From positions 114,467 through 178,466 of the forward strand of contig JBJMLR010000007.1 in the NCBI GenBank assembly GCA_045805205.1: DNA of 64,000 nucleotides. Reading direction: 5' to 3'. Below the pieces are notes generated by a model that made no database searches, was not told the origin of the DNA, and worked only from the letters and a program-made list of their open reading frames with translations. Below, one piece after another: positions 22,448-46,681 of the stretch. This stretch comes from Bacteroidia bacterium. GTDB lineage: Bacteria > Bacteroidota > Bacteroidia > 2-12-FULL-35-15. A program made the translations under genes and the position numbers. Each line of letters opens with the position of its first letter. The first letter of the stretch is position 1.

Positions 22448-22469
22448 TGTGCTTGACTTTTAAAGCGAT

Positions 22470-27391: not shown

Positions 27392-27399
27392 CAAATATA
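27392..27399 (-). promoter_or_regulatory. -7 promoter box (TATATTTG)
   Basis: TAnnTTTG on the minus strand upstream of start 27359. Confidence 0.5.
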
Positions 27400-27456
27400 G
27401 TTTTTATGGGGACTTAACGAAATTATTTGCCTAAAATCTTTGTGTCGGAAACCGTG

Positions 27457-31013: not shown

Positions 31014-32285
31014 TCAGGCGAAAAGAGGGTAGACCTTCATCAGCTTATTCACTTCTTTTTTTACTTCTGCGATCGCTTTTTCGTTATCGTGATTCATCAA
31101 TACTTTATCGATGAGGTTAACGATTTTCGGAATTTGCTTTTCTTTGATTCCGCGGGTGGTGATAGCCGATGTTCCGATCCGGATCCCCGATGTAACGAAC
31201 GGCGACTTATCATCGAAAGGAACCATGTTCTTGTTCACGGTGATATCGGCTTTAACGAGTGTTGTTTCCGCCAGTTTTCCCGTAAGGTTCTTTGAGCGAA
31301 GATCGATAAGCATGCAATGGTTATCAGTTCCGTTCGAAATTACTTTATAGCCTTTATCAACGAAGCACTGCGCCATCAGCTTTGCATTCTTCATTACCTG
31401 GATGCAATATTTCATATAGCTGTCATCCAGCGCTTCGCCGAATGCCACGGCTTTTGCAGCGATCACATGCTCGAGCGGTCCTCCCTGTGTGCCGGGAAAA
31501 ACAGCAGCATCGAGCATCTGCGACATCATCTTGATCTCACCTTTCGGCGTTTTTTCGCCCCATGGATTCGGAAAGTCCTTTCCGATCATGATCATTCCAC
31601 CGCGCGGTCCGCGAAGCGTTTTATGCGTCGTTGTTGTCACCACATGACAATATGGAAGCGGATCATTCATTAATCCTCTTGCGATCAGTCCGGAAGGATG
31701 TGAAATATCTGCCATCAGCAGCGCACCGACCTTATCCGCGATCTGGCGAAGTTTTTTGTAATCCCAGTCGCGGGAATAAGACGAAGCGCCGCAGATAATA
31801 AGCTTTGGCTGCTCTTTCACGGCGATCTGCTCTACTTTATTAAAATCAACGCGTCCGGTTTTTTCTTCGACGCCATAGAAGCTCGGAACATACAGCTTCC
31901 CGGAAAAGTTCACGGGCGAACCGTGGGTCAGGTGTCCGCCATGCGAGAGATCGAATCCGAGGATCTTGTCGCCGGGCTTCAGAATGGCCAGCATCACCGC
32001 CGCATTTGCCTGTGCTCCGGAATGAGGCTGAACATTCACCCACTCCGCGTTAAATAATTTTTTAGCTCTGTCGATCGCAAGCTGTTCCACTTTGTCGACA
32101 ACTTCACAACCGCCATAATAGCGCTTTCCGGGCAGTCCTTCTGCATATTTGTTCGTGAGGACGGAGCCCATAGCCTTCATCACACTTTCGCTGACATAAT
32201 TTTCAGAAGCGATCAATTCAAGTCCAATGGTCTGACGTTTTTTCTCTTCTGCAATAAGCTCGAAAACTGCGGTGTCTTTTTTCAT
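31014..32285 (-). CDS. glyA: Serine hydroxymethyltransferase
   Basis: [42 protein letters not shown] (PLP lysine). ATG 32285 preferred to TTG 32315. Confidence 0.97.
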
Positions 32286-32331
32286 AAGTGGATCGGATAA
32301 ATTTAATTCAGGCAAAAATAAAATTTAGTTT

Positions 32332-32832
32332 TTAACTATTTCGCCTTTGTGCTTTTTCTTTTTCAGAAAGTTTCAGCGCAGGGATCAGGATCATCAGGAG
32401 CACGGGCGATTGTGCCATCCCCATCAGGTAACGGGCGAATTCATACATTTTTTCTGAAATGCCCGTGAACATGTACCCCGAGGCGATAAAAATGCCGGAA
32501 ATGGTAATTATCCCTGCATAGGTCAACAAGCAGAGCTTTCGATATCGGTGATCGCCGAACAGCAGCCGGAGTGCCCAGACGGAAAGCAAAAAATAAAATA
32601 GACTGAAAAGCAGGGTAAGTAACCATTTTAGATTCACCAGCGTATCATAGTCGTAATTTTCCAGGAAGGAAAGCGGCGCGGGAAGAAAGTAATCCTGGTC
32701 GTTATCCCACGCCCGGAGAAGTGCATTTATCGATTTGAAGATATAGTCTCTGAAATAGCCGGACAGGATGATCAAGGAAAGCAAAAGGGTGGCGTAAATA
32801 AAGAATTTTATGCTTTTTCTACCTTTTGTCAT
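32332..32832 (-). CDS. Exosortase-associated membrane protein (XrtX/XrtF-associated type)
   Basis: About 4 TM segments, KWLLTLLF and ARYLMGMAQSPVLLMIL motifs, 5.8 kb from an exosortase gene. Family recognised from memory, not searched. Confidence 0.55.
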   Translation of the reverse strand: MTKGRKSIKFFIYATLLLSLIILSGYFRDYIFKSINALLRAWDNDQDYFLPAPLSFLENYDYDTLVNLKWLLTLLFSLFYFLLSVWALRLLFGDHRYRKLCLLTYAGIITISGIFIASGYMFTGISEKMYEFARYLMGMAQSPVLLMILIPALKLSEKEKAQRRNS

Positions 32833-32836
32833 GGTT

Positions 32837-32868
32837 CAAAAGTAGGATTATTCCCCGTTTGTCGCAAA
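32837..32868 (-). promoter_or_regulatory. Full Bacteroidota sigma-70 promoter (TTTG-N20-TACTTTTG)
   Basis: Minus strand TTTG at 32868-32865 and TACTTTTG at 32844-32837, 20-nt spacer. Confidence 0.65.
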
Positions 32869-32957
32869 AAAGGAGCCTAACGTCTAAAAATCACTTAGAT
32901 TATTTCGTTTTTCTCGTATATTTAGAGTGCAAATAAGCTTTCGGGCTGAAACCATCT

Positions 32958-32965
32958 TACTTTTG
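32958..32965 (+). promoter_or_regulatory. -7 promoter box (TACTTTTG) for the 1884-aa gene
   Basis: Exact TAnnTTTG upstream of ATG 33014. Confidence 0.5.
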
Positions 32966-33013
32966 ACATAGTTCCGTGTAGTAATTGCTTTTGAATCCGG
33001 ACTTAAACTTTAT

Positions 33014-36000
33014 ATGAATAGAAAAAGCTACTCCCTTTTTTTAATTCTTTTTTTTGCGCTTTCTGCAGGGAAAATATTTTCAGCTACTTTTTATTGTCGT
33101 GCGAATGGGAATTGGGCAACCGCATCTACCTGGTCGGTCGTTTCCTGCAGCGGTGCATCTGCGGCCTCTATTCCCGGGGCGGGTGATGCTGTGGTCATTT
33201 GCGCAGGCCGTACCGTTACCATGAATGGCAATCCCGGCGCGTGTCTGTCACTTATCGTTAACGGAACGGCTAACTGGACCTCTGCATTTACGACGAATGT
33301 CGGTGCGGGCGGACTGACCCTGAATACCGGTGCAGTATTATCGGGAACGGCGGTCGGAACTTTGAATGTCGCCGGTACGCTCACTCAATCGGGAACAGCT
33401 ACGATCGGAGGCATCACGCTTGCGGTGACGGGAGCGACAAGTGTTTCCGGAACAATGACATTTAATAATGCGGGTGGCACAAAAACATTTTCGAGCGTAA
33501 CGATCAATGCTCCCGGGGACTTTAGCAGCTCAGTGGCGGAAACATACGCCGTGAGCGGAAATCTCGTAATGAACGGAGGAAGCCTCACGGGATCCAGCAG
33601 TGGTATCATGACAGTGGGCGGCACATTTACGATCATGGCCGGCACTTCAGCGGCGCTGGGAAATATGAACCTCTCGGTAACCGGCCTGACGTCTATTAAC
33701 GGAGCGCTTACGGATAACAGCACAGGCGGCTCGAATGTATTTAATAACGTGGATCTTAATTCTACCGGTAGCTTTAACAATACTGCGGCGGAAACCTATA
33801 CGATCAATGGCAATCTCAGCACATACGGGGGAGATTTTATTGCGACGGGTGCCACTCCTGTTTTCAATATTGCGGGTAATTTCAATGTGGTATCGGGTGT
33901 TTGTGATGTGAGCCGCATTAAGTTCACGATCGGCGGAACTACAACAATCGCGGGGACGCTGGATATAAACAGCGTCCGGGGAACGAAGACATTCAATAAC
34001 ATCGTTGTCACATCTACGGGAACATTTAATTCTACTGTTGCTGAAAATTATGCTGTTAATGGAAATATCCAGGTTGACGGAACTTTTAATGCTAATTCAG
34101 GAGTGTGGACGCTTTCGGGATCAGGAAAAACGATCAGCGGAACAACTGCGATCACCTTCGATGACATTACCGACAACGGTTCATATACCAACAGCGCATC
34201 TGTTACGCTGGGCACAAGCCTGGGCGGAACCGGAACCTGGAGCCAGGCTGCAACCGGAACAGTGAACCTGCCGATCAGCAATGCAAATTTTTCGGTCAAC
34301 ATTTTCAATGCCTCTGCGGCCGGAAATACGGTGATCTACAGCCGTGCCGGAAATCAGACCGTGATCGCGCCGAATGACGGAAGCTATTCCAATCTTACGC
34401 TGTCGAATAGCGGAACCAAGCAGCTTGCCGCGGCTACCGTCGTGGGAAAAAATGTATTGATAAGCGGCTCCGCTGCATTCGATTCAAATAATAAGAACCT
34501 GACGGTTGGCGGTAATTTTACTAATAACAGCACATTTACGCCTGGAACGGCAACTGTTACCTTGAATGGTTCTTCAGCTCAAACCCTGGGCGGAACATCC
34601 GTTACCGGCTTTAATAATCTCACAGTAAACAACGCGGCCGGAATTACACTGGGAAACAGTATTACTGTCGGCGGAGCGCTTGCGTTCACTTCCGGCGTGA
34701 TCACCACTTCAGCAAATAAAGTAACGATCAATTCGGGTGGTTCTGTTTCCGGTGCGGGAACTTCTAAATTTGTCAACGGATTCCTTGAAAAAGCTGTTTC
34801 CATCGGCTCTTCGGTTTCGCGCACATTTGAAGTGGGATCCGGCACTACGGATTATCTCCCGCTGACACTCCTGTTCGGAACGGTTTCATCGGTCGCGGGG
34901 AAGATCACTGTGAAAGTTAACAACGGCGATCATCCGAATATCGGTACATCCGTAATTGATGATCTGAAAAGTGTTAATCGTTACTGGTCGATCACCAACT
35001 CAGGAACAACATTTACCAACTATACGGCAACCTGTAATTTTATCGGGGTGCCTTCCGATGCGGATGCAGGCTCGATAACTGCGAACTATTACATGGCGAT
35101 CTATAACGCCGGTGCATGGACCTTGCTTACAAGAGGAACTGTTGCTGCTACATCCAACCAGGCAACGGGCGTCACAACTGTCGGAGATCTCCAGATCGGG
35201 GAAAAGCGTCAGTCGAGCGTTGTGATCACTGCAAGTCCTTCGGGTACTGTTTGTGCGGGTACCAATGTAACATTTACTGCAACTCCGACGAACGGGGGAA
35301 CGACACCAACGTACCAGTGGAAAAAGAATGGTGTGAATATCGGCGGTGCAACTGCATCCACTTATTCGACCACAACGCTTGTCACGGGCGATGTGATCAC
35401 TTGTCTCATGACTTCCAGTCTTGTGGGTGTTCTTGGCAGCCCGTCGCTTTCCAATTCAATTACAATGACCGTAACTCCAAGTGTTCCGGTAAGCGTAAGC
35501 ATTGCGGTCAGTCCTTCCCCGACCATCTGTGCCGGAGCCAGCGTGACGTTTACTGCGACACCAACGAACGGCGGAACGGTTCCGTTTTACCAGTGGCAGG
35601 TGAATGGTTCCAATGTAGGAACGAACAGTCCGACGTATACCAGCTCGACGCTGACGAACGGACAGATCGTGACGTGTATCCTGACCTCGAATGTGACTTG
35701 TCCTTCCGGGAACCCTGCAACATCGAATGCGATCACGATGACCGTGAACCCTGTACTTCCTGTGAGTATTTCAATTTCAGCAAGTCCGTCATCAACCGTT
35801 TGTGCCGGAACAAATGTGACTTTCACAGCAACACCGACGAACGGCGGCGCAACGCCAGCATATCAATGGAAGAAGAATGCTGTGAACATCGGCGGTGCTA
35901 CAGCTTCCACTTATTCCTCTTCGGCACTGGTTACGGGTGATGTGATCACCTGCCAGCTGACATCCAGCGCTACCTGTATCAGTGGAAGTCCTGCTACATC

Positions 36001-38668
36001 GAATGCGATCACTATGACGGTGAATCCAAATTTACCGGTGAGCGTGAGCATTTCTGCAAGTCCATCATCAACGATCTGCTCGGGAACGAATGTGACTTTC
36101 ACGGCAACTCCGACAAACGGCGGTGGCGCTCCTGTATATCAATGGAAGAAGAACGCTGTGAACATCGGCGGTGCCACATCATCCACTTATTCTACAACAA
36201 CACTTGTGAACGGTGATGTGATCACTTGTCAGCTTACTTCCAGCGCAACCTGTATTACCGGCAGTCCGGCAACTTCCAATTCGATCACGATAACAGTGAA
36301 TCCGAATTTACCGGTGAGTGTCACTATTGCTGCGAGTCCTTCGTCAACGATTTGTGCCGGAACCAGCGTAACATTTACCGCGACACCGACGAACGGCGGA
36401 ACGGTTCCATCCTACCAGTGGCAGGTGAATGGTTCCAATGTGGGAACAAACAGCCCGACGTATACCAGCTCAGCGCTGACGAACGGACAGATCGTGACGT
36501 GTATCCTGACCTCGAATGTTACGTGTCCTTCCGGGAATCCGGCGACATCGAATGCGATCACGATGACCGTAAACCCGATCGTTACAGCAAGTGTTACCAT
36601 TGCAGCAAGTCCATCGGGAACGATCTGCTCGGGTACTTCTGTTACATTCACAGCTACGCCTGTAAATGGCGGGGCAGCTCCTGTATATCAGTGGAAGCTG
36701 AACGGAAGCAGTGTAGGAATTAATTCTCCGACATATACAAACGCTTCGCTTGCAAGCGGTGATGCGATCACGTGCGTGATGACCTCCAATGCAGCCTGCG
36801 TAGTAACCGCAACGGTCAACAGCAATACGATCAACATGACTGTTACCGCACCGGGAACGTGGCTTGGAACAGTTTCTAACAATTGGAACGCAGCCGGAAA
36901 TTGGTGCGGAGGAGTTCCCACATCGACAACGGATGTAACCATTCCTGCCGGTGCGAGCTTCTATCCGCAGCTTACAGCGAATGCCAGTTGCCGCGGCATC
37001 AATATTAACGCGGGCGGGTCATTCAGTCTCAGCAGCTTCAACATTAATGTAAAAGGCAACTGGGTGAACAATGGTACATTTAACCAGGGAACCGGAACCG
37101 TAGTATTTGACGGAGCAGCAGCGCAAACGATCCTGACGGCAGGAACCATGAGCTTCAACAACCTAACCATCAACAACGCTGCGGGTGTGATGCTCGCCGG
37201 AGGTTCATACAGCCTGGACGGAGCATTAACCTGCAGTGCAGGAACTTTCAACACCAATGGCAAGAGCTTTACGATGACATCAACGGCAGCCCGGACGGCA
37301 CGCATTGCTCCGATCACGGGAACCGGTGCAATTACCGGTGATTTTACCGTCCAGCGATTCCTGTCGGCACGTGATACTACCTTCTGTGATCTTGCTTCGC
37401 CGGTCGCCGGAACTAATTTCGATGACTGGAACGCGGAATTGCCGGCCATAAGCTATAGCTATTCACCACCGTATAATGAGCCATCGGCGTACACCTACGA
37501 TGAGACCGGTGATGTGTATGTACCGATCACATCTTCGGCAACAGCGCTGACCTCGGGTAAAGGATACGAAATTTTTGTCGCAGGTGATTTCAGCTATTCG
37601 GGTCTTCCGAATACGACACTTAACCTGACCGGTATACCTGCACAGGGGACAAGAAATCTGAGTGCGTTCATTTCAAATAATGCACAGGGCTGGAACCTTG
37701 TGGGTAATCCTTTTGCTTCCAGCATTTCGTGGGCATCGGTGTACGCTGCTTCCGGTGCGGCATCCAGCGGACTCTATGATTATATCGAGATGTATGACTA
37801 TACGATCGCCGACTGGAACGGATATACGTCTGCCGATGGAATTGAAATTGGTTCGGGACAAGGCTTCTGGGTTTACGGTTTGCCAGGCGCAACAGGTCTC
37901 ACGCTGATCATTCCGGAATCATCGAAAACAAGCTCATCGAACAGCTCTATCAAAACAATGACGAACGGCCAATACCTTTCGCTGCAATTGTCGGGAGATC
38001 AGCATTCGTTTGCGCATACGTTCCGCGTGCGTGTATTGCCTGATGCGTTGAATGGCATCGATGCACTCGATATCCCGTTCAGAAAAAGCCCGAACCTCGC
38101 CACACCTCAGTTATATTCTGTCGTTGAAGGAAGAAAGATCAATACCAATTCATTTAATGGCTCGGATGACAATTATACTATTCCCTTAGAGTCAAAAGCA
38201 ACTTATAGCGGACATTACAGCCTGGATGTTTCCGGGGTCCGGAATATTTCCCGGTATGCGTGCATCAGTCTTGAAGACAAATTCCTTGGAAAAACGATCG
38301 ATCTCACAGCGGTAAGCCGTTATGAGTTTGATATGGATACGGCGGATCGCGCTGATCGTTTTGCCTTGCATTTCAGCAAAACCGGCGACTGTAAAGCAAC
38401 GCAGGCTCAGCAAAACGCGGAGGGGAACCAGTTTGTAGAGGTGCTGCCATCTGCTGCCGGAAGTCATATCAACTTCAGCTTTAATGAATCCACGCCGGTA
38501 ACGGTTGAGGTAATGAACACACTCGGACAGTCGATCGTTCCGGAATTGGAAACAACGGCGGGTTATTCATCGCAGGAGATCCGCTTGCCGGATGATTATT
38601 CGGGACTTTATATTGTTCGCATCACTTCTGCGAAGGGCGTTGTGGTAAAGAAGCTTTACCGGAACTGA
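33014..38668 (+). CDS. Large T9SS cargo / adhesin: beta-helix-like N-terminus, six Ig-like repeats, GWNLVGNP module, type A CTD
   Basis: Signal peptide, G8-like N-terminal motif, tandem Ig repeats, C-terminal NTLGQ...GLYIVRI...KKL. Confidence 0.85.
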   Translation: MNRKSYSLFLILFFALSAGKIFSATFYCRANGNWATASTWSVVSCSGASAASIPGAGDAVVICAGRTVTMNGNPGACLSLIVNGTANWTSAFTTNVGAGGLTLNTGAVLSGTAVGTLNVAGTLTQSGTATIGGITLAVTGATSVSGTMTFNNAGGTKTFSSVTINAPGDFSSSVAETYAVSGNLVMNGGSLTGSSSGIMTVGGTFTIMAGTSAALGNMNLSVTGLTSINGALTDNSTGGSNVFNNVDLNSTGSFNNTAAETYTINGNLSTYGGDFIATGATPVFNIAGNFNVVSGVCDVSRIKFTIGGTTTIAGTLDINSVRGTKTFNNIVVTSTGTFNSTVAENYAVNGNIQVDGTFNANSGVWTLSGSGKTISGTTAITFDDITDNGSYTNSASVTLGTSLGGTGTWSQAATGTVNLPISNANFSVNIFNASAAGNTVIYSRAGNQTVIAPNDGSYSNLTLSNSGTKQLAAATVVGKNVLISGSAAFDSNNKNLTVGGNFTNNSTFTPGTATVTLNGSSAQTLGGTSVTGFNNLTVNNAAGITLGNSITVGGALAFTSGVITTSANKVTINSGGSVSGAGTSKFVNGFLEKAVSIGSSVSRTFEVGSGTTDYLPLTLLFGTVSSVAGKITVKVNNGDHPNIGTSVIDDLKSVNRYWSITNSGTTFTNYTATCNFIGVPSDADAGSITANYYMAIYNAGAWTLLTRGTVAATSNQATGVTTVGDLQIGEKRQSSVVITASPSGTVCAGTNVTFTATPTNGGTTPTYQWKKNGVNIGGATASTYSTTTLVTGDVITCLMTSSLVGVLGSPSLSNSITMTVTPSVPVSVSIAVSPSPTICAGASVTFTATPTNGGTVPFYQWQVNGSNVGTNSPTYTSSTLTNGQIVTCILTSNVTCPSGNPATSNAITMTVNPVLPVSISISASPSSTVCAGTNVTFTATPTNGGATPAYQWKKNAVNIGGATASTYSSSALVTGDVITCQLTSSATCISGSPATSNAITMTVNPNLPVSVSISASPSSTICSGTNVTFTATPTNGGGAPVYQWKKNAVNIGGATSSTYSTTTLVNGDVITCQLTSSATCITGSPATSNSITITVNPNLPVSVTIAASPSSTICAGTSVTFTATPTNGGTVPSYQWQVNGSNVGTNSPTYTSSALTNGQIVTCILTSNVTCPSGNPATSNAITMTVNPIVTASVTIAASPSGTICSGTSVTFTATPVNGGAAPVYQWKLNGSSVGINSPTYTNASLASGDAITCVMTSNAACVVTATVNSNTINMTVTAPGTWLGTVSNNWNAAGNWCGGVPTSTTDVTIPAGASFYPQLTANASCRGININAGGSFSLSSFNINVKGNWVNNGTFNQGTGTVVFDGAAAQTILTAGTMSFNNLTINNAAGVMLAGGSYSLDGALTCSAGTFNTNGKSFTMTSTAARTARIAPITGTGAITGDFTVQRFLSARDTTFCDLASPVAGTNFDDWNAELPAISYSYSPPYNEPSAYTYDETGDVYVPITSSATALTSGKGYEIFVAGDFSYSGLPNTTLNLTGIPAQGTRNLSAFISNNAQGWNLVGNPFASSISWASVYAASGAASSGLYDYIEMYDYTIADWNGYTSADGIEIGSGQGFWVYGLPGATGLTLIIPESSKTSSSNSSIKTMTNGQYLSLQLSGDQHSFAHTFRVRVLPDALNGIDALDIPFRKSPNLATPQLYSVVEGRKINTNSFNGSDDNYTIPLESKATYSGHYSLDVSGVRNISRYACISLEDKFLGKTIDLTAVSRYEFDMDTADRADRFALHFSKTGDCKATQAQQNAEGNQFVEVLPSAAGSHINFSFNESTPVTVEVMNTLGQSIVPELETTAGYSSQEIRLPDDYSGLYIVRITSAKGVVVKKLYRN
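35216..36850 (+). repeat. Six tandem ~91-92-aa Ig-like repeats
   Basis: Unit SVxIxASPSxTICxGTxVTFTATPTNGG..PxYQW..NG...TY....L..GD.ITC..TS...C....A.SN.ITMTV. Confidence 0.92.
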
Positions 38669-39187
38669 TCAGGTCCTGTCAGCGAAACGGTTCACCCAGA
38701 TCATCCATAACCAGAAAATGAATCCGAGGATCACAATGTTGAATGTATAGGCGTGATTGAACTCCGTCCAGGCCCGTGAATGGGTGTCGAGGATGGCAAG
38801 GATGACCACCCGGAGTACATTGAGAAGATGGATCAGGATAATCCCTGCGGGGATGAAGAACAGCTTATAGCGGATCCTTCCCTTGTACGCGATGATGAAA
38901 CATGTGAACAAGGCGAATAAGGTGATCCCATTGCAATTATCTCCCATCCAAAGGCCCGAAGCGCCATCGATCCCGATCAGGCGATCGGCTCCGGTAAAAA
39001 CAAGATATCCCATTGCTTCCAGGATCCATTTAGCCATGGAGAGTGTAAGATCAACAATAAAAAGATCGAAGCGTTCGTCGGGGTGGAGCCAGAGATCGTA
39101 TACGAGATACCAGGAAATATAAAGTGAGAAAATGATCAGAAGAAACCGGGCTACAGGATTCTTCAGGAAAGCGATGTTCATGAACAA
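38669..39187 (-). CDS. Short exosortase (XrtF/XrtX type; Exosortase_EpsH superfamily)
   Basis: TM-rich, catalytic triad context DNCNG (Cys), NVLRV (Arg), NHAYTF (His). Confidence 0.85.
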   Translation of the reverse strand: MFMNIAFLKNPVARFLLIIFSLYISWYLVYDLWLHPDERFDLFIVDLTLSMAKWILEAMGYLVFTGADRLIGIDGASGLWMGDNCNGITLFALFTCFIIAYKGRIRYKLFFIPAGIILIHLLNVLRVVILAILDTHSRAWTEFNHAYTFNIVILGFIFWLWMIWVNRFADRT

Positions 39188-39207
39188 CTATAAATAAAGA
39201 ATCCCGG

Positions 39208-39450
39208 TTAAGCGGGATTCTTTTTTAGTGAGCAATATAATTTGTATCCTCCATATGATATGCCTGCGATCAGCAGCAGTACGATCCCACTATCCAACGG
39301 AATCGGACAGGGAGGAAACGGTCCGCCGCAAGGCGTAGGAACTCCCATTCCCATTCCCATACCCATACCGACAGCGAAAGTATTGGAAATGAAAGCCGGT
39401 GCTGCGATGAACACGACGGAGAGCACTATTTTTAAAAATTTCTTATTCAT
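39208..39450 (-). CDS. PID-CTERM sorting-signal mini-protein (80 aa)
   Basis: Signal peptide, (GM)4, PCGGPFPPCPI, PLDSG, TM helix IVLLLIAGISYGGY, basic tail. Directly upstream of the exosortase. Confidence 0.8.
   Translation of the reverse strand: MNKKFLKIVLSVVFIAAPAFISNTFAVGMGMGMGMGVPTPCGGPFPPCPIPLDSGIVLLLIAGISYGGYKLYCSLKKNPA
39343..39369 (-). repeat. Hexamer tandem repeat (GGWATG)x4 encoding GMGMGMGM
   Basis: Plus strand TCCCAT x3 + ACCCAT + ACC. Confidence 0.9.
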
Positions 39451-39468
39451 ATGATCTTATTTGCTTGG

Positions 39469-39476
39469 CAAAGTTA
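39469..39476 (-). promoter_or_regulatory. -7 promoter box (TAACTTTG) for PID-CTERM/exosortase
   Basis: Exact TAnnTTTG in the 46-bp spacer upstream of start 39450. Confidence 0.5.
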
Positions 39477-39496
39477 GTTAATCGGCGGTGCCGGAT

Positions 39497-41920
39497 TTAT
39501 TTTTTTACAAATTTTTTGGTAACAGCACCTTTTGCTGATTCCACTTTCACGATGTACATGCCGTTAAATCCTTCCGGCAATGTGATGTTTACCGATTGAT
39601 CAAGTGCATTCACGCTCATTGTTTCGGTAATGTTCTGCCCGAGCATGTTGATCACAGAGATGTTTGTGTTCGCAGCTTCTGTATAGCTGAAATTGATCGT
39701 GTTTCCGGTTGCGTTCGGAAGGATCTCAACTTCGTTGCTCAGAGAAGGTGTTGATGAAGCGACCGAGGACTTGCAGTTGCTGTCTTTGCTCAGCACCAGT
39801 GTAAAACGATCAGGGTTATCGTTTGGATCAGCCATGAAGCAGTAGCCATTACCGTCGTTCAGGTCGATCACCTCTCCGGACTGCTTATCCAGCAATTTTA
39901 CGCAGGTATACTCCGGAATAAAGCTGTAGCCTGCAGGATCAAGACGATATTTGCCTGCAACGCTGACCTTTGTCCGCAGCGGAATAGAATAATTTTCATT
40001 AGCAGAATTAAAGCTGAAGATATTGATCTTCTTGCCTTCCAGCATCGTATACATTTCAGGTGTAGTAGCGTTGATACTCTTATGGAACGGGATGTCCTTT
40101 GAGTCGAGTGCATCGATGCCGTCGCCTTCAGCAGAAACCTTGAAGATGTGAGCTGCTTTGGATGTTGTGCTGCTCAGTTTCAGCGTGAAATAAGGCTGCA
40201 TGCGTTCTCCGGCTTTGAGTGAGCTGTTTGAAGAAGTTGTTTTAGCGGACTCAGGGATGATCAGGGTCATCGGGCCGGCAAGTCCGTATACCCAGAAGCC
40301 CTGTGTAGATCCGATCTCCTGGCCGGATGCAGAGGTGTATCCGTTCCAATCCGCGATCGTGTAATCATACATTTCGAAATAATCGTACATGCCGCTTCCT
40401 GCACCGCCGGATGCAGTGTAAACACTCGACCAGGAAATGCTGGATGCAAACGGATTACCAACGAGGTTCCATCCCTGTACCGTATTTGAAACGGAGCTGC
40501 TCAGGTCAAAATCACCCTGGTTCGGCACGCCAACGGTGGTTAGGGTGGTAGCTGGAAAATTCGCATAGCTGTAATCACCTGAGAGGAAAACTTCAAAGCC
40601 TTGTCCGGCATTTAATGACGTTCCCGAAGAAGTTACAGGTACATAAGCATCTGCCATTTCATCATACGTAGCGGCCGAGGCATAGTCGTTGGGAGGATTG
40701 TCAGTATAGCTGACTGCCGGCAATTCATTATCCCAGTCGTTGAACGTTGTGCTTTGCACCGGTGAGGAAAGATCTGCCCAGGTAGTGTCTCTTGCGGTAA
40801 TAAAGCGCTGGATCGTGAAGTTTCCGGCAATGGCTCCGGTGCCTGCGATCGGTGCAATACGGGCTGTCTGAGCGGCGGTAGAGGTCATGGTGAATGGTCG
40901 TCCGCCGGTATTGAAAGTTCCATTTGAAACCGTGAGGACCTCATTCAGATTATATGTTCCGCTGGTGAGTGTTACACCCGCAGTATTATTGATCACCAGC
41001 CTTTTAAAGGTAGTTGTTCCGGATGTATTGGAAACCGTTTGTGATGTTGTTCCGCTGAACGTCACGCTTTTTCCGGCGCTGGCCACAAATGTAGCGGAGC
41101 TGGACCAGTTTCCGTTAACGGTGATGTTAAAGTTGTTGGAATTGAATGTAAGCGTGCTTCCCAATGTAAGGTTTTTGCGGACCAGCAGATCCTGGAGAAT
41201 GGTTTTTGTCCCGGCGCTGGTAGCAATGGTAAGGTTGTAATAGCCGTTATTGGCGCCGGCGATTGTCAGCGGAACATTTCCGGCTCCGTAGTTCAGGATC
41301 ACGGTGTTGTTATTAGCGGAGCAGTCAAGGGTTGAGCCGGCAAAAAAGCCGTTTTTACGGATATCAAGCGTTGCTGATGTGCCATTGATGAATTTTGCAG
41401 TTGAATGCGAAATAACGGTTCCGAAAACAAAGCTTCCAAGGTTGGTTGTCACCGACAGAGAGCTGAATGATGGTGTACAGCCCAGCTTGCTGATGACAGA
41501 GCCGGCAAGGATCGTACGTGTGCCCGTGAATGCATAACGGACCTGGGAGCCCGAACCTGCTGCAACCGAAATAGTAGTTCCGGGAGCAGCGAACTGCATG
41601 ATCCCGATTCCGGTTTCAGAACCAGTGGCGGAGACCACATAATTCCCTTTCACGTTCAGTATGATGTTTGCAAGATAGGAGATTGTACCATTTACCGTAA
41701 GGTTATTGCAGTTTGCAGCTGCAGCGAGTGTGATAGTGCTGCCCGCAGTGATCGTGACATTATCAGAAGCACCGGGAATTCCGGCAGGTGACCATGAACT
41801 GGAAGTATTCCAATCTGCCGAACCGGCAGCTGCGGGAACATAATTGACGCCGATCGCGTCAATGCAAATTCCACATGCAAATAAAGCAGTGGCCGCGAGT
41901 GTTTTTTTGAATAGCTTCAT
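39497..41920 (-). CDS. T9SS cargo protein, paralog of the 1884-aa protein's C-terminal module
   Basis: Signal peptide, G8-like DWNTSSSW..GIPGASDNVTI, shared ARIAPI..QRF..GWNLVGNPFASSISW module, CTD NMLGQ...GMYIVKV...KKFVKK. Confidence 0.85.
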   Translation of the reverse strand: MKLFKKTLAATALFACGICIDAIGVNYVPAAAGSADWNTSSSWSPAGIPGASDNVTITAGSTITLAAAANCNNLTVNGTISYLANIILNVKGNYVVSATGSETGIGIMQFAAPGTTISVAAGSGSQVRYAFTGTRTILAGSVISKLGCTPSFSSLSVTTNLGSFVFGTVISHSTAKFINGTSATLDIRKNGFFAGSTLDCSANNNTVILNYGAGNVPLTIAGANNGYYNLTIATSAGTKTILQDLLVRKNLTLGSTLTFNSNNFNITVNGNWSSSATFVASAGKSVTFSGTTSQTVSNTSGTTTFKRLVINNTAGVTLTSGTYNLNEVLTVSNGTFNTGGRPFTMTSTAAQTARIAPIAGTGAIAGNFTIQRFITARDTTWADLSSPVQSTTFNDWDNELPAVSYTDNPPNDYASAATYDEMADAYVPVTSSGTSLNAGQGFEVFLSGDYSYANFPATTLTTVGVPNQGDFDLSSSVSNTVQGWNLVGNPFASSISWSSVYTASGGAGSGMYDYFEMYDYTIADWNGYTSASGQEIGSTQGFWVYGLAGPMTLIIPESAKTTSSNSSLKAGERMQPYFTLKLSSTTSKAAHIFKVSAEGDGIDALDSKDIPFHKSINATTPEMYTMLEGKKINIFSFNSANENYSIPLRTKVSVAGKYRLDPAGYSFIPEYTCVKLLDKQSGEVIDLNDGNGYCFMADPNDNPDRFTLVLSKDSNCKSSVASSTPSLSNEVEILPNATGNTINFSYTEAANTNISVINMLGQNITETMSVNALDQSVNITLPEGFNGMYIVKVESAKGAVTKKFVKK

Positions 41921-41995
41921 AGGGTTTATTGTTTAATACGTAAAAATATGAATTTATTTTTTATCTGCCAAGGAAACATTGTCCATTTCTGCCTA

Positions 41996-42003
41996 CAAAA
42001 TTA
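41996..42003 (-). promoter_or_regulatory. -7 promoter box (TAATTTTG)
   Basis: TAnnTTTG on the minus strand upstream of start 41920. Confidence 0.4.
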
Positions 42004-42114
42004 ATTCGTTAGCCTCATTTAAGATATAGCTGTGATAATGTTTTCCGTGTAGGAGAAATCACTACAAAAAGCCCGCAAAAAACGTTTTAAAACATGTCGT
42101 CCGCATATAATTTC

Positions 42115-42122
42115 TATATTTG
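42115..42122 (+). promoter_or_regulatory. -7 promoter box (TATATTTG) for the wzc operon
   Basis: Exact TAnnTTTG upstream of ATG 42145. Confidence 0.55.
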
Positions 42123-42144
42123 CAAAAATCCCATCCGGTAAAAT

Positions 42145-44526
42145 ATGGCAGACAAAAAAGGGTCCAACATCATAGAAATGGACGATATCAGGTCGTTCCT
42201 GAAAGTCTTTTCCAAGAACTGGTACATCCTTATTCTGGCTGTCATCGTTTCTGCTGTAATTGCCTATTTTTATACCTACAAGCTTCCTGATATTTATGCT
42301 GCCAAATCACAGGTACTCCTGAAATCGGATCAGACCTATGATTACCAGACAAAGCTTTATAACGGTCTTGGTTATTATCCCATTTACCAGGACAACGCCA
42401 ACCAGATCCGGGTATTGACCTCTAATGATCTTATTGAAAAGGCGCTTGAGAAACTGAAGCTTGATGTTTCCTATTATATCGTCGGCCGCCTCAAAACGAC
42501 CGAAGTGTATGATGCGATGCCGTTTGATTTTTCGGCGAAGCTGCTGGACGGAAAGCTGTACGAAAAAGAGATCAGGTTCAAGATCCTCGACAAGCAGCGA
42601 TTCCGGATCACGTATCAGAAGGGAGATAAAGAAGTAGTGAAGGAATTCCCGTTCGATAAGGATATCTACGACAATGATTTTGTGCTGAACGTAAAAAAGA
42701 ACGATAACATCAACGACAAAACGATCCAGAACATCAGCGAGAATGACTACATGATCAAGGTGCATAATATGGGTAGCATGGTGGGTCATTATAAAGGTGC
42801 ATTAAGTGTGGAGGAAGTTGAAAATACTTCCATTCTTGAGCTTTCGGTAGAGGATGAGATCGCTGCCCGTGCGATCACTTTCCTGGATACACTCTCTAAA
42901 GTATATATCGATTATACGGCATCTGCGCAGTACACGGTGAATGAGAATACGCTGAATAATATCGACAAGCAGCTGGCGGGTGTAACGGAAGTGCTTACAT
43001 CGATCGAGGACGATCTTGAAAATTACAAAGCGAACAAGGAAGTACTGGATCTTCCAAAACAGGAGGACCAGTATTTCGACAAGCTGGTGGAATACGACGC
43101 GCAGAAAAGGGAGCTGGAGCTTTGGATCGGATCCCTCGAGGCGCTGGAAAAATATATTATTGCGATCGGAGAGCAAAAAGATGAGAAACTTTTGCCGCCT
43201 TCTTTTTATATCGGAAAAGATGATGACTATCTGAAGACCGCGATCAACGAGCTGTATACATTGCAGATGAACCGGAATTCCAGGCTATTCAATTCTACAG
43301 AAGAAAATAAGAATATCTCCGAATTGGATCAGACGGTGGTACTTCTCAAAAAAAATATCCTCACGTACATCAAGAATTCGAAAGAGGGCATCCAGAATAA
43401 GATCAAAGATATCGATAAGCAGATCGCCGATTATACTGCGATCATTAAAGGGATCCCAAAAACGCAGCGGGATCTTCTGACGATCCAGCGCAAGGTGGAT
43501 GTGAATGAAAAAATGTATGTCTACCTGCTGGAGCAGCGGGCGAACACGATCATTGCGCGTGCGGGGATCCTTCCGCAAACGGATATTATTGAATCGGCGC
43601 ACTCGATCGGGATCATTAAGCCAAACAAAAGAAAGATCCTTTATTATTTTATGACGGTCGGATTGCTCCTCAGCCTTATTGTCGTATTCATCCGCACGGT
43701 GCTGTTCTCAACGATCGAAAATATCCTCGAGCTGAAGCGCCTGACCAGCCTGCCCGTTCTGGGAGAAGTATTGCTTTCGGACGATGCGAAGTTTAACTAT
43801 ATCATTGTGGACAAAGATCCGAAATCGGCGGTCACGGAGAGCTTCCGGGCCATCCGGACCAACCTGGAATACATGGCAAGCAATGCGCGCTCAAAAGTGA
43901 TCCTGATCACTTCGTACAATCCGGGTGAAGGAAAAACATTCTGTTCGGTGAACCTTGCTACGATCCTTGCCAAAGCCGGAAAAAAAGTGCTGATCCTGGA
44001 ATTGGATCTTCATAAGCCGAAAGTGCAGAAGGCGCTGAATATGTCGTCCGAGATGGGAGTAAGTACAGTGCTGATCGGCAGGAATACAATAGAAGAAGCC
44101 ATTCTAACTACGGAAATTGAAAACCTGTCGGTTGTGCTTTCAGGTCCGACTCCTCCGAATGCATCGGAGATCATATTGAGCCCGCAGCTGAGTGAGATCA
44201 TGGAGTATGGGCGTACCCATTACGATTATGTGATCGTGGATACTCCGCCTGTCGGGTTGATCACCGATGCATTGGTCATCATGAAGCACGTGGATGTATC
44301 TCTTTTTGTACTCAATGCAAAATATGCCAAGAAACAGATCGTGAAGATCGCAGAAGAAATTGTTGAAGCAAATAAGCTGAAGAATTTCGGGCTCATCCTG
44401 AATGGTGTCAAACGCACCCGCCGCGGATATTATAACAGCTATGGCTACGGCTATGGTTATGGCTACGGATATAGCTATGGCTACGGCTACGGCGGTTACG
44501 GTTATGGAAATTCCAAGAAAAAATAA
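42145..44526 (+). CDS. wzc: Wzc-type polysaccharide co-polymerase / BY tyrosine kinase
   Basis: Two TM segments flanking a periplasmic coiled region, ESFRAIRTNL, Walker A GEGKT, Walker B VIVDTPP, C-terminal Tyr cluster. Confidence 0.92.
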   Translation: MADKKGSNIIEMDDIRSFLKVFSKNWYILILAVIVSAVIAYFYTYKLPDIYAAKSQVLLKSDQTYDYQTKLYNGLGYYPIYQDNANQIRVLTSNDLIEKALEKLKLDVSYYIVGRLKTTEVYDAMPFDFSAKLLDGKLYEKEIRFKILDKQRFRITYQKGDKEVVKEFPFDKDIYDNDFVLNVKKNDNINDKTIQNISENDYMIKVHNMGSMVGHYKGALSVEEVENTSILELSVEDEIAARAITFLDTLSKVYIDYTASAQYTVNENTLNNIDKQLAGVTEVLTSIEDDLENYKANKEVLDLPKQEDQYFDKLVEYDAQKRELELWIGSLEALEKYIIAIGEQKDEKLLPPSFYIGKDDDYLKTAINELYTLQMNRNSRLFNSTEENKNISELDQTVVLLKKNILTYIKNSKEGIQNKIKDIDKQIADYTAIIKGIPKTQRDLLTIQRKVDVNEKMYVYLLEQRANTIIARAGILPQTDIIESAHSIGIIKPNKRKILYYFMTVGLLLSLIVVFIRTVLFSTIENILELKRLTSLPVLGEVLLSDDAKFNYIIVDKDPKSAVTESFRAIRTNLEYMASNARSKVILITSYNPGEGKTFCSVNLATILAKAGKKVLILELDLHKPKVQKALNMSSEMGVSTVLIGRNTIEEAILTTEIENLSVVLSGPTPPNASEIILSPQLSEIMEYGRTHYDYVIVDTPPVGLITDALVIMKHVDVSLFVLNAKYAKKQIVKIAEEIVEANKLKNFGLILNGVKRTRRGYYNSYGYGYGYGYGYSYGYGYGGYGYGNSKKK
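44440..44508 (+). repeat. (TAY GGN)n repeat encoding the YG tyrosine cluster
   Basis: YGYGYGYGYGYSYGYGYGGYGYG. Confidence 0.9.
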
Positions 44527-44547
44527 GCCGGTGTGCGGCAAACAGCG

Positions 44548-45399
44548 ATGAACAAACGAGAGGAAGACTGGACACTTGTCGTAAGACCGCAGAATAAATT
44601 GCTGCAGCTGAACTTACGGGAGCTGTGGCATTACCGTGATCTGGTGATCCTCTTTGTCAGGAGAGATTTTGTGTCGTACTACAAGCAGACCATTCTCGGT
44701 CCTTTGTGGTATATTATTCAACCGGTTCTCACCGCGATCATGTACTCGTTCGTTTTCGGAACAATCGCAAACATCGATACCCCGGGACTTCCGAAATTCC
44801 TCTTCTATCTTTCCAGCATCACGATGTGGAATTATTTTGCGGAAACGCTGAATAAAACCTCGAATACGTTCATTGCCAATGCACAGATCTTCGGTAAGGT
44901 ATATTTTCCGAGACTAACAGTTCCTTTGTCGATCGTGATCAGCAGCCTGATCGCGTTCCTGATCCAGCTCGCCGTATTTGTGACGGTTTTACTCTATTAT
45001 AATTTTGCCGGGACTCCCTTGCATCCCAACATCTACCTGCTGCTGCTGCCGCTGCTTGTTTTGGTAATGGCCGGGATCGGGCTGGGAGCGGGGATGATCA
45101 TTTCATCTTTAACAACCAAATACCGCGACCTTCGTTTTCTCATTACGTTCGGAGTGCAGCTGCTGATGTTCGCCACACCGGTGATCTATCCATTATCGGC
45201 GGTGATGGGAAAAAAGAAATTGCTGCTGATCGCGAATCCGCTGAGCTCTGTGATCGAAACGTTCCGCTATGGTTTCACCGGTGTCGGGGAATTTCACTGG
45301 GGATATCTTTTGTACAGCGTTGTGTTCATGGTAGCGGTGGTAGCGGCCGGCTCGGTGCTTTTTAACAAGGTTGAAAAATCATTCATGGATACCGTTTAA
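44548..45399 (+). CDS. wzm: ABC-2 polysaccharide exporter permease
   Basis: YKQTILGPLW, VYFPRL, KYRDL, TPVIYP, NPLSSVIETFR. Alternative GTG at 44533. Confidence 0.9.
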   Translation: MNKREEDWTLVVRPQNKLLQLNLRELWHYRDLVILFVRRDFVSYYKQTILGPLWYIIQPVLTAIMYSFVFGTIANIDTPGLPKFLFYLSSITMWNYFAETLNKTSNTFIANAQIFGKVYFPRLTVPLSIVISSLIAFLIQLAVFVTVLLYYNFAGTPLHPNIYLLLLPLLVLVMAGIGLGAGMIISSLTTKYRDLRFLITFGVQLLMFATPVIYPLSAVMGKKKLLLIANPLSSVIETFRYGFTGVGEFHWGYLLYSVVFMVAVVAAGSVLFNKVEKSFMDTV

Positions 45400-45403
45400 C
45401 AAA

Positions 45404-46681
45404 GTGAAAACAGTTATCAAGGTCGATCATCTCTCAAAAGAATACCGCCTCGGTGAGGTGGGCACCGGTACGTTTTCCCGCGATCTGAACAGCTGGTGGG
45501 CTAAGCTCAGCGGAAAAGAGGATCCGAATGCAAAGATCGATCTGCTGAATAATAAAAATGGTAGCAGCGAAGGTATTCACAAGGCGCTGACCGATGTTTC
45601 TTTTGAAGTTCAGGAAGGAGAAGTGCTCGGGATCATCGGGAAAAACGGTGCGGGAAAATCAACCTTGCTGAAAGTGCTTTCGCGTGTAACCACACCGACT
45701 GCCGGTGAATTCAAGGTCCGCGGACGAATTGCGAGCTTGCTTGAAGTAGGAACAGGCTTTCACCCGGAACTTACCGGGAGAGAAAATATCTTTCTCAACG
45801 GAGCGATCCTCGGTATGAAAAAGGCGGAGATCAGCAGAAAGTTTGATGAGATCGTTGATTTTTCCGGTGTGGAAAAATTCATCGATACACCTGTAAAGAG
45901 ATATTCATCCGGAATGTATGTACGCCTGGCTTTCGCCGTAGCGGCGCACCTGGAACCGGAGATCCTTGTCGTGGATGAAGTACTGGCGGTAGGTGACATT
46001 GCTTTCCAGAACAAATGCATGGGAAAAATGAATGAAGTCAGCAAGCAGGGGCGGACCATTCTTTTTGTCAGTCATAATATGCAGGCGCTCAGCCAGCTTT
46101 GCACACGCGGGATCCTGCTGCAGAATGGCAGCGTTGTTCAGAACGGAAGCATTACCGAGTCGATCAGGAACTACCTGAGCAACTCGATCAGCACCACCGG
46201 TCCGGCTTATGATCTTTCCCTGAATACCGATCGAAGAGGAACGGGGCTGCTCCGGTTCACGAAACTGGAAATGTATAACAAAGGCTCTCTGAGCAATAAT
46301 TATGTGATCGGGGATGACATGGAGCTGCGGTTGACGGTGAAAGCCATCAAGCCGGTGAAAAATGTGAGCATTGCGATCCATCTTTATCGTTATGATGAGA
46401 TCGTGCTTGCTAACATTGAAAATATAGATTCGGGTTTCATCATCGACCAGGTGGAAGGAGAAACTACTTTTAATATTAAGTTCAGCAATCTTAACTTTTA
46501 TCCTGAGACCTATAAGCTTGGTTTTTGGATCGCCAGCTCCGACAGCCAGGAAACACATGACCACCTGAAGTATTGCGCAGAATTCCACATAATGGAAGGA
46601 TCACCGCTGGTCAAGCGAAAGCTGCTCAGGACCGGCGGCTCGATCTACCTGACACCGGAGTGGGGATCCGGCGGCCGTTAA
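45404..46681 (+). CDS. wzt: ABC polysaccharide exporter ATPase with Wzt_C domain
   Basis: GKNGAGKST, YSSGM, VVDE, SHN, C-terminal carbohydrate-binding-like domain. GTG 45404 preferred. Confidence 0.92.
   Translation: MKTVIKVDHLSKEYRLGEVGTGTFSRDLNSWWAKLSGKEDPNAKIDLLNNKNGSSEGIHKALTDVSFEVQEGEVLGIIGKNGAGKSTLLKVLSRVTTPTAGEFKVRGRIASLLEVGTGFHPELTGRENIFLNGAILGMKKAEISRKFDEIVDFSGVEKFIDTPVKRYSSGMYVRLAFAVAAHLEPEILVVDEVLAVGDIAFQNKCMGKMNEVSKQGRTILFVSHNMQALSQLCTRGILLQNGSVVQNGSITESIRNYLSNSISTTGPAYDLSLNTDRRGTGLLRFTKLEMYNKGSLSNNYVIGDDMELRLTVKAIKPVKNVSIAIHLYRYDEIVLANIENIDSGFIIDQVEGETTFNIKFSNLNFYPETYKLGFWIASSDSQETHDHLKYCAEFHIMEGSPLVKRKLLRTGGSIYLTPEWGSGGR

Follow-up and report, generated by a model that had tools for sequence, protein, structure and literature searches.

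Gene content of the exosortase X locus

The genes described here lie between glyA and a Wzc-type PCP/tyrosine-kinase gene (wzc) in a 64,000-nucleotide stretch of DNA from a Bacteroidia bacterium (contig JBJMLR010000007.1), which is referred to as the window. They encode an exosortase (XrtX), an XrtX-associated membrane protein (the partner protein), a small protein with a PID-CTERM sorting signal (the mini-protein), and two large proteins, cargoS and cargoL, with a type-A C-terminal domain (CTD) for a type IX secretion system (T9SS). Family calls were made with curated NCBIfam and Pfam models, and the score was compared with the curated cutoff. All five open reading frames (ORFs) reported in an initial annotation of this DNA are present where it had placed them, and each scores above such a cutoff (Table 1). 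XrtX, PID-CTERM, and the partner protein are families already curated in NCBIfam and Pfam, as annotation only. A newer Pfam release contains PF28310, 'PID_CTERM', and this label is precomputed for the mini-protein. In the literature searched, nothing relevant to PID-CTERM, XrtX, or 'exosortase X' came up.

Table 1. Features of the exosortase X locus and of the adjoining genes in the window, with model scores against curated cutoffs
Feature	Coordinates	Strand	Evidence
glyA	31014-32315	-	Label of the initial annotation; SHMT Pfam match on the syntenic counterpart in locus L042
XrtX-associated membrane protein (partner), 166 aa	32332-32832	-	NF046082, 75.7 bits, cutoff 75
cargoL, T9SS type-A cargo, 1884 aa	33014-38668	+	TIGR04183, 35.8, cutoff 23
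xrtX, 172-aa ORF	38669-39187	-	NF046081 exosortase X, 177.2 bits, cutoff 170
Terminator-like hairpin	39196-39223	-	Hairpin scan; visible in the sequence
PID-CTERM mini-protein, 80 aa	39208-39450	-	NF046080, 28.8 bits, cutoff 26
cargoS, T9SS type-A cargo, 807 aa, first gene of the operon	39497-41920	-	TIGR04183, 47, cutoff 23
Divergent AT-rich intergenic region cargoS/wzc, 224 bp	41921-42144	.	Gene coordinates
Wzc-type gene (wzc)	42145-44526	+	Pfam: Wzz, GNVR, P-loop; Tyr-rich tail
Wzm, ABC-2 permease	44533-45399	+	Pfam
Wzt ATPase with Wzt_C domain	45371-46681	+	Pfam

XrtX is a polytopic membrane protein for which 312 homologues were found. Its ORF reaches back to a TTG at 39187, and the identical database twin, of 170 amino acids, starts from the ATG at 39181. 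In addition to the exosortase X model, it matches the exosortase/archaeosortase signature TIGR04178 (48 bits, cutoff 23) and PF09721. The intact exosortase Cys/Arg/His set seen in the initial annotation corresponds to Cys83, Arg124, and His143, which are invariant in 26 diverse homologues. The score with the XrtF model TIGR04128 is 78.9 bits, under its cutoff of 90, and the score with the XrtX model is above cutoff, so the enzyme is XrtX and not XrtF. The clade straddles the XrtX cutoff, with relatives scoring 161.8–189.7 bits. The partner protein has about four transmembrane (TM) segments by hydropathy, and it gave no match at E ≤ 0.1 with TIGR04127, the model of the XrtF partner. Among the profile searches that the initial annotation had suggested, NF046081 and NF046080 were thus passed, and the two XrtF-type models were not. 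By analogy with other sorting enzymes, XrtX would cleave, or transpeptidate, at the PID motif.

The mini-protein consists of a signal peptide (residues 1–26, nt 39373–39450), a predicted mature peptide VGMGMGMGMGVPTPCGGPFPPCPIPLD (residues 27–53, nt 39292–39372), and a C-terminal part made up of a TM helix and a KKNPA tail (residues 54–80, nt 39211–39291). Its hydrophobic segments are at residues 8–26 and 48–66. The match with NF046080 covers residues 51–72, where P-I-P-L-D is followed by the TM helix, and KKNPA is situated at the extreme C terminus. Cleavage by signal peptidase (between …TFA and V) and at the PID motif would leave an uncharged product of about 25 residues with a possible disulfide loop. 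Across the 41 loci compared below, few single-residue changes interrupt the strong conservation of the PCGGPFPPCP-[IV]-P-[LI]-D block, and its core residues and C-x6-C loop are invariant in 46 aligned close homologues. The (G-M)n stretch ahead of the block varies in length within the close clade. A 70-residue shadow ORF (39242–39454, plus strand) runs antisense to the low-complexity G-M/Pro-rich sequence; it is not a gene and gave only a marginal self-match (E = 9e-4).

Apart from the mini-protein, no ORF of the window or of any of the 41 loci has a PID tail, and none was found elsewhere in about 0.9 Mb examined around XrtX genes. Model and tail searches agree with the initial annotation that neither large cargo has a PID tail and that the mini-protein has no T9SS CTD. 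All 121 close homologues of the mini-protein are 48–89 residues long. An HMMER search of 1.84 billion representatives with a mini-protein profile returned 298 clusters (50% identity) at E ≤ 1e-3. Among the best 150 of these, 148 are 54–130 residues in size, and the two large matches are internal low-complexity stretches, not C-terminal tails. PID-CTERM proteins are therefore a large class of mini-proteins, which because of their small size are easily overlooked or left as 'hypothetical' in annotation.

Both cargos have N-terminal hydrophobic segments, consistent with a Sec signal. CargoS is composed of a signal peptide, a β-helix (approximately residues 26–340, nt 40901–41845), a RemA-like module (residues 343–716, nt 39773–40894) with the invariant motif N485-L-x-G-N-P490, a disordered linker (residues 718–726), and the CTD (residues 731–807, nt 39500–39730), which is also matched by PF18962 (30.8, cutoff 27). 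The AF2 model of cargoS, based on a 66-sequence alignment, has a pLDDT of 90.5 and reveals two β-rich domains at residues 343–560 and 578–711. In a Foldseek comparison with the Protein Data Bank (PDB), only the CTD superposes, on the T9SS CTDs 8gl6_D, 8gl8_D, and 8qb1_A; the probability is 1.0 and the target-normalized TM-score 0.60–0.66 against the CTDs of RemA and mirolase. Assigning a function from the whole-chain fold was rejected, as the top PDB match is an S-layer protein with a TM-score of just 0.09. When the module was modeled alone (pLDDT 73.4), no PDB match was obtained at E ≤ 0.001. The best match in a viral library was set aside because it is simply one more member of the family, on a mis-binned contig. 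No catalytic signature was found, and the β-helix has no invariant charged residues.

CargoL contains N-terminal β-helix-like repeats, Ig/PKD-like repeats, and a G8-like cap (Ig_3, PKD_3, and G8 matches), followed by the shared module (residues 1336–1811, nt 37019–38446) and the CTD (residues 1812–1884, nt 38447–38665), which by Pfam alone is just under threshold (25.6, cutoff 27). Its C terminus is 53% identical to cargoS over 552 residues, QGWNLVGNPFASSISW included, and across these C-terminal residues the two proteins are paralogues, as had been proposed. The gene is convergent with xrtX, and the two stop codons abut. Within it, a tandem repeat at 35714–36399 (276 bp, 2.5 copies, 78% match) encodes Ig/PKD-like domains that share CxGxxVTFTATPTNGG…YQW, with about seven such domains visible by eye over residues 700–1290.

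A profile of the cargo family matches RemA of Flavobacterium johnsoniae (E = 5.9e-15) at residues 885–1055, the β-helix cap, and at residues 1056–1435, which contain the NL[IV]GNP…DRF module and the type-A CTD. RemA is a T9SS-secreted surface adhesin with a role in gliding (PMC12618676, PMC8269157). The possibility that the window encodes a full RemA orthologue was rejected, as the match is limited to residues 885–1435 and the N-terminal 880 residues of RemA have no orthology; no lectin domain was found by Pfam in the window cargos. Conservation within the cargo family peaks in the C-terminal module, with a mean column identity of 0.7–0.8 compared with 0.35–0.6 in the N-terminal parts. A conserved, shared C-terminal module combined with differing N termini fits a constrained cell-proximal module that bears variable distal payloads. 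The family assignment of the cargos is clear, and their secretion by the T9SS is predicted from it.

The cargos also share a linker motif, [IV]-P-E-S-[AS]-K-T-[TS]-S-S-N-S-S, at residues 553–566 of cargoS (approximately nt 40223–40264) and residues 1630–1646 of cargoL. It sits in a flexible stretch between two β domains, and its Glu and Lys are invariant in the module family. This E-x-x-K-T motif could be a processing or modification site. The idea that E557/K560 in 'IPESAKTTSSNSS' provide a Lys acceptor for XrtX, by analogy with a pilin motif, was rejected as evidence because E-x-x-K-T is kept in all module paralogues, even those far from exosortases.

Conserved gene order and a hairpin at the mini-protein stop codon

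To place the window arrangement in context, 41 XrtX loci were compared, one genome per species, with XrtX 49%–73% identical to that of the window. Six-frame ORFs of the neighborhoods were searched with the five window proteins, and all neighboring genes were clustered. The mini-protein gene lies about 25 bp upstream of xrtX, and the same pairing is present in 40 of the 41 loci. A gene for a T9SS cargo of about 800 residues, the mini-protein gene, and xrtX follow each other on a single strand in 37 of the 40 loci with the upstream region present. Median gaps are 46.5 bp (range 21–105) between cargo and mini-protein genes and 26 bp between mini-protein gene and xrtX. P0233, a cargo orthologue of about 840 residues, is part of one such full triad. 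The window gene arrangement is thus not due to chance.

One monophyletic group has the triad between a UvrD-like helicase/glutathione peroxidase upstream and an RluD-like gene downstream. Here the triad is intact although both flanks have been replaced by unrelated housekeeping genes. At least five types of downstream junction occur. The survival of the triad through flank replacement, together with the varied junctions, argues against plain synteny.

The large reversed cargo paralogue between xrtX and the partner gene is found in one subclade only, which includes the window. In the deepest-branching loci the partner gene directly follows and overlaps xrtX, and the two adjoin in L010, L016, L018, L028, L031, L037–L039, and the distant L052–L055; in the window they are parted by cargoL. 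From these comparisons we infer an ancestral order in which wzc lay divergently beside cargo–mini–xrtX–partner–glyA and the 1884-residue cargo gene was probably inserted later. The divergent wzc/cargo arrangement is present in 25 of the 41 loci, and a wzc/Wzm/Wzt block adjoins the cassette in 20–25 of them. The region at 41921–42144 presumably holds promoters in both directions. No conserved promoter or operator was found in the cargo–wzc intergenic region, where the AT-rich sequences do not align across loci.

For a more distant comparison, the context of eight mini-protein genes (L049–L056) was analyzed. The distant mini-proteins share one plan: a signal peptide is followed by a short Gly/Pro/Met-rich stretch that varies freely, in most of them by a small C-x(4-8)-C loop, and then by [PV]-[IP]-[ILP]-D-G-G, a TM helix, and a basic tail. 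In L049, a cargo-family protein with a type-A CTD is encoded 24 bp upstream on the same strand, and a 40-residue reverse-strand fragment and the contig end lie downstream. This cargo is 27% identical to cargoS over 568 residues (E = 3e-43), and the cargo-to-mini order thus recurs next to a mini-protein for which the PID_CTERM model gives 44.2 bits (cutoff 26). In L051, a locus from a hydrothermal-vent metagenome, a cargo-family gene lies upstream and xrtX downstream. The mini-protein gene is followed by xrtX and the partner gene in L052–L055; the upstream neighbor is a divergent wzc in L053 and L055, a divergent undecaprenyl-PP synthase gene in L052, and a ribosomal protein gene in L054. In L050 the contig is too short upstream, and xrtX lies downstream. 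The L052 cassette (686–2717) divergently adjoins its undecaprenyl-diphosphate-synthase-type prenyltransferase gene (PF01255), a single case that fits a connection with lipid-linked glycans. In L056 (334–1848), which has no xrtX downstream, the mini-protein gene is 156 bp downstream of a gene for another T9SS type-A protein, a 368-residue PKD-type protein without the RemA-like module. No exosortase was found in the 8 kb covered downstream; upstream, 1.6 kb is covered. The L056 pairing suggests that T9SS-cargo/mini-protein pairing may not be limited to one cargo family.

The universal core in the lineages sampled is the order mini–xrtX–partner. Two recurrent partners join it, and both are present in the window: a T9SS type-A cargo directly upstream and, oriented divergently, a Wzc-type export gene. 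Of the cargo subfamilies, one alone is tied to XrtX. These results bear out the gene identities and the genetic coupling of the exosortase/PID-CTERM pair with T9SS cargos proposed in the initial annotation; the co-occurrence check that it named reveals the enrichment of cargos next to xrt/PID genes whose absence it would have taken as refutation, with the order kept in 37 of 40 loci and recurring in L049 and L051. The boundaries of the unit had to be redrawn. The coupled genes are those for the cargo of about 800 residues, the mini-protein, and XrtX, and the 1884-residue cargo belongs to a later insertion in one subclade. The gene wzc, treated as a mere boundary, is part of a divergent Wzc/ABC-2 glycan-export block that is an equally recurrent partner. 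Linkage of cargo and exosortase is frequent but not obligatory. The further suggestion of the initial annotation, that the peptide may serve these cargos as an acceptor, chaperone, or signal, is compatible with the comparative data.

The mini-protein stop codon is enclosed in an 11-bp stem, AAAGAATCCCG-cttaac-CGGGATTCTTT, which is followed by a T-rich tail and lies about 15 nt ahead of the xrtX start. A hairpin is predicted at the same position in 40 of the 41 loci (z < -2 compared with shuffles, median dG -15.7 kcal/mol). The helix has at least 9 bp in 39 of the 41, with 26 distinct 5' arm sequences, and both arms are altered together in L007, L023, L029, and L038. L037, which lacks the KKNPA codons, has an unrelated hairpin just downstream. 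The analysis used per-sequence folding with shuffles and a direct comparison of the arms; a formal covariation count was dropped because, with loops of variable length, the MAFFT alignment does not keep the 3' arms in register. With a stable, GC-containing stem, a T-rich tail, a conserved position, and co-varying arms, the hairpin has the properties of an intrinsic terminator. The interval to xrtX is also too short for a promoter, and partial termination is the simplest reading. The hairpin is probably an attenuator, by which the output of cargo and mini-protein would be similar and would exceed that of the enzyme.

Most of the window is a surface-glycan locus by Pfam. It contains genes for two DegT aminotransferases, a phosphoglycosyl transferase, about ten glycosyltransferases (GT2/GT4/GT11), a Wzy_C/ligase-like protein, an MBOAT acyltransferase, a UDP-GlcNAc 2-epimerase, Wzm/Wzt, and the Wzc-type protein. 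The presence of at least four CTD proteins would imply a T9SS in the host genome, and no T9SS machinery genes (SprA/Sov, PorV, PorU, and others) were found within the 64-kb window. The cassette, embedded in a large glycan-biosynthesis locus, is therefore less self-contained than the initial annotation had stated.

Several other genes in the window were noted. The C terminus of the Wzc-type protein (nt 44440–44526) is a Tyr-Gly tail of unusual regularity (YGYGYGYGYGYSYGYGYGGYGYG), presumably the autophosphorylation cluster. At 47790–52236, a 165-residue protein consists of almost nothing but a T9SS type-A CTD; encoded after it are two paralogues of about 655 residues with a C-terminal Peptidase_S74 domain (endosialidase intramolecular chaperone). 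One of them also has YadA-head repeats, and the pair look like surface fibers of a tail-fiber-like kind. In about ten related loci this CTD-protein/S74 trio (clusters c9 and c8) is found again, downstream of wzc/ABC. Another T9SS type-A CTD protein, of 1218 residues and with no other Pfam domain, is encoded at 14757–18413 on the minus strand. Between it and the glycan genes, at 12880–14694, are two tandem genes that each encode a double-Usp-domain protein. Four paralogous TPR/PD40 β-propeller proteins, at least one of them with CarboxypepD_reg and OmpA domains, are encoded as an array at 20749–29514, and paralogues of this family are conserved downstream of glyA and the E2 gene in eight loci.

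Possible roles of the mini-protein and XrtX

We favor, tentatively and with somewhat less than even confidence, a model in which XrtX converts the mini-protein to an envelope-linked peptide of about 25 residues that serves the surface attachment of the co-transcribed RemA-like T9SS adhesin. As judged from the sequence, cargoS and the mini-protein would be transcribed together from a promoter region shared with the divergent wzc. The hairpin would let only some transcripts into xrtX, and ancestrally also into the partner gene, so that synthesis of adhesin and peptide would be high and roughly matched and that of the enzyme low. The mini-protein would be exported by Sec, and its architecture suggests that signal peptidase I takes off residues 1–26, with the C-terminal helix and KKNPA tail holding the remainder in the inner membrane. 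XrtX, through Cys83, Arg124, and His143 and together with its four-helix partner, would then cut at P-[IV]-P-[LI]-D. The resulting Gly/Met/Pro-rich peptide with its C-x6-C loop may be transferred to a non-protein acceptor, by analogy with ArtA/PGF-CTERM and rhombosortase/GlyGly-CTERM. Candidate acceptors are the head group of a lipid and an amino sugar from the glycan that the surrounding DegT/GT/Wzm-Wzt/Wzc locus would make and export. The adhesin would exit through the T9SS by its type-A CTD. Because of the conserved gene linkage, conjugate and adhesin are proposed to act in one surface structure, in which the conjugate would likely form or complete the attachment site of the adhesin. Three published precedents described below lend the model circumstantial support: the phenotypes common to xrtF-system and porU mutants, the acceptor sugar of PorU, and the operons of type-B substrates with their anchors. 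In a more specific version, based on analogy with known transpeptidases and unlikely in our estimate, XrtX would join the C terminus of the mini-protein to an amino sugar or lipid of the glycan from the neighboring locus, and, once exported, the peptide would offer its free Gly-rich N terminus as the amine acceptor to which the T9SS sortase PorU joins the adhesin on removing its CTD.

A number of observations weigh against this model. The mini-protein gene and xrtX occur without an adjacent cargo in L026, L032, and L052–L055, and L039 has xrtX and the partner gene only, with no degraded mini-protein gene found upstream of xrtX. The longer module paralogues P0227 and P0238, which have the GWNLVGNP module, are encoded far from any exosortase, so the module itself does not require XrtX in cis, and the E-x-x-K-T motif of the linker also occurs in cargos not linked to XrtX. 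The module has no informative structural relative from which a binding function could be deduced. Of the distant loci, L049 has the hairpin and L050–L056, where the gap between mini-protein gene and xrtX is 2–34 bp, do not; the hairpin thus characterizes the cargo-bearing clade rather than the family as a whole. The genomes of the 41 loci are all metagenome-assembled genomes of uncultured Bacteroidia or Flavobacteriales, many of them from lakes, and the search for PID tails covered 64 kb of the window genome and about 20 kb of each related genome. To our knowledge, no bacterial exosortase product has been chemically defined, and we know of no route that takes an inner-membrane product to the cell surface.

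A lesser but serious contender is that adhesin and peptide are co-regulated, functionally independent surface components. XrtX would then mature the peptide for a separate task in the envelope or exopolysaccharide matrix, as in the classical PEP-CTERM/EPS concept, and the adhesin would be a further member of that surface regulon, interacting with the peptide neither physically nor enzymatically. The cargo-free loci and the module paralogues encoded away from exosortases speak for such independence, as does the setting of the locus in an extensive surface-glycan region with its cluster of many surface genes. It does not predict that one cargo subfamily holds the immediate upstream, same-strand place through translocation and down to 27% identity, nor that cargo and mini-protein genes are jointly placed upstream of the hairpin. 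Persistence of the order at that distance, in L049, and its recurrence in a hydrothermal-vent sample, together with the intact triad between replaced flanks and the at least five downstream junctions, also largely refute the idea that the adjacency is the inherited, functionally meaningless synteny of one lineage. This we consider very improbable, although background synteny is strong, with glyA, the E2 gene, and the PD40/OmpA genes also common to many loci, and although all genomes come from related uncultured Bacteroidia.

Two further explanations concern the mini-protein itself. It is rather unlikely to be the precursor of a released or bioactive peptide, such as a signal, an antimicrobial, or a Met/Cys metal-binding peptide, or one that is cyclized head to tail or polymerized by XrtX through transpeptidation onto its own Gly-rich N terminus, with the adhesin either unrelated or acting as receptor or carrier. 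The C-x6-C loop, invariant in close homologues, conserved in the 41 loci, and matched by analogous loops in most distant mini-proteins, would suit such a peptide, as would the high expression implied by the transcript layout. The precursor–hairpin–enzyme layout resembles that of peptide-maturation operons, and a (G-M)n stretch could bind Cu(I). In contrast, the N-terminal half of the mature peptide is of low complexity and varies freely (GMGMG, GPPGPPGGGG, PPPPPGG), which is easier to reconcile with a spacer than with a specific ligand; the cassette has no conserved gene for an exporter, immunity, or a receptor, and the conserved residues crowd against the cleavage motif, as recognition by the enzyme would predict. 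We think it quite improbable that the mini-protein is a small accessory, regulatory, or decoy membrane subunit of XrtX and that larger proteins from other parts of the genome are the true PID-CTERM substrates. NCBIfam does treat PID_CTERM as a 'domain' model, the mini-protein of the window is barely above its cutoff, and the DNA searched for PID tails is a limited part of each genome. Against this, the mini-protein has a complete sorting-signal architecture, with a signal peptide and a C-terminal motif, TM helix, and basic tail; the exhaustive profile search gave small proteins almost exclusively, its two large matches being internal; and about 0.9 Mb of DNA around the XrtX genes contains no other PID tail.

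Relation to known sorting systems

The core XrtX/PID-CTERM system is of a known, curated kind, and the three window proteins pass its NCBIfam models NF046081, NF046080, and NF046082 (with PF28310 in Pfam), the window clade being at the edge of the XrtX model. The models omit the upstream T9SS cargo, the Wzc linkage, the restriction of substrates to mini-proteins, and the hairpin. New, in that no description we found includes them, are the conserved association of this core with a RemA-like T9SS adhesin and with a Wzc-type export block, the substrate class made up of mini-proteins alone, and the precursor–hairpin–enzyme layout.

PEP-CTERM/XrtA (EpsH) uses an enzyme of the same superfamily, has a tripartite C-terminal signal, and is associated with exopolysaccharide export. 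It differs in its P-E-P motif and in its many, often large substrates, whereas the window system has P-[IV]-P-[LI]-D, one tiny substrate, and a T9SS cargo partner. Membership in PEP-CTERM/XrtA was rejected on the basis of this motif and because the XrtA model is not among the model matches of XrtX. A typical XrtA is also much larger than the 170-residue enzyme of the window. The XrtF system of F. johnsoniae (Fjoh_1448 and Fjoh_1449) likewise pairs a small Bacteroidota exosortase with a small membrane partner encoded beside it, and XrtF is the second-best model for the window enzyme. The XrtF substrate is not known, whereas the predicted substrate in the window is obvious by sequence. Deletion of xrtF or Fjoh_1449 in F. 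johnsoniae gives the same phenotype in seven assays as deletion of porU, porZ, or a DegT gene, and the ΔsprA and ΔporV mutants differ from the ΔxrtF profile in one assay (PMC10936215). The xrtF-system mutants lose surface colonization, biofilm, and zorbs, as do ΔporU and ΔporZ mutants (PMC10936215).

The C-terminal region of RemA is like that of the window cargos, in which no lectin domain was found, and remA is not known to be adjacent to an exosortase gene. T9SS type-B substrates share operons with anchoring partners, the PorP-SprF shuttle and the PorE anchor (PMC12618676). These operons combine a type-B CTD with outer-membrane β-barrel partners, in contrast to the type-A CTD, inner-membrane exosortase, and peptide of the window. 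In the ArtA/PGF-CTERM and rhombosortase/GlyGly-CTERM systems, the protein loses its C-terminal helix at the membrane, and a lipid-type moiety is attached to the C terminus so exposed; the rhombosortase product then crosses an outer-membrane secretion system and stays on the surface (PMC7468200). There the processed protein is itself the surface protein, whereas in the window the processed molecule would be a peptide of about 25 residues and a separate secreted protein carries the T9SS CTD; rhombosortase is, moreover, an enzyme family unrelated to exosortases. PorU joins cargo C termini to a Gly- or Ser-substituted linking sugar of A-LPS, and the same authors speculate that exosortases use a similar acceptor and describe a link between the enzyme that builds the PorU sugar and exosortase-associated FemAB-like proteins (PMC7468200). 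For the N terminus of the mini-protein as a PorU acceptor, PorU and sortase A provide an analogy only. The parallel is a transpeptidase that couples a surface protein to a free amine on a short, Gly-containing peptide borne by an envelope glycolipid, as sortase A does with the pentaglycine of lipid II. If the serial version of our model were true, the peptide would be a Gram-negative counterpart of this sortase A/pentaglycine bridge, with two unrelated transpeptidases acting in series on one tether, and it would give XrtF/XrtX-type exosortases their first defined product and role.

At this locus, two protein-sorting systems previously regarded as separate are linked. Exosortases are widespread. 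That a product has never been defined for a bacterial one is due in part to the many large, heterogeneous substrates of typical systems. A system reduced to one enzyme, one small partner, and one product of about 25 residues is well suited to mass spectrometry. The adhesin operon with its Wzc/ABC neighbor provides a hypothesis for the retention of type-A cargos outside the A-LPS paradigm of Porphyromonas, and it gives a rationale for the finding that xrtF mutants of F. johnsoniae phenocopy porU and porZ mutants (PMC10936215).

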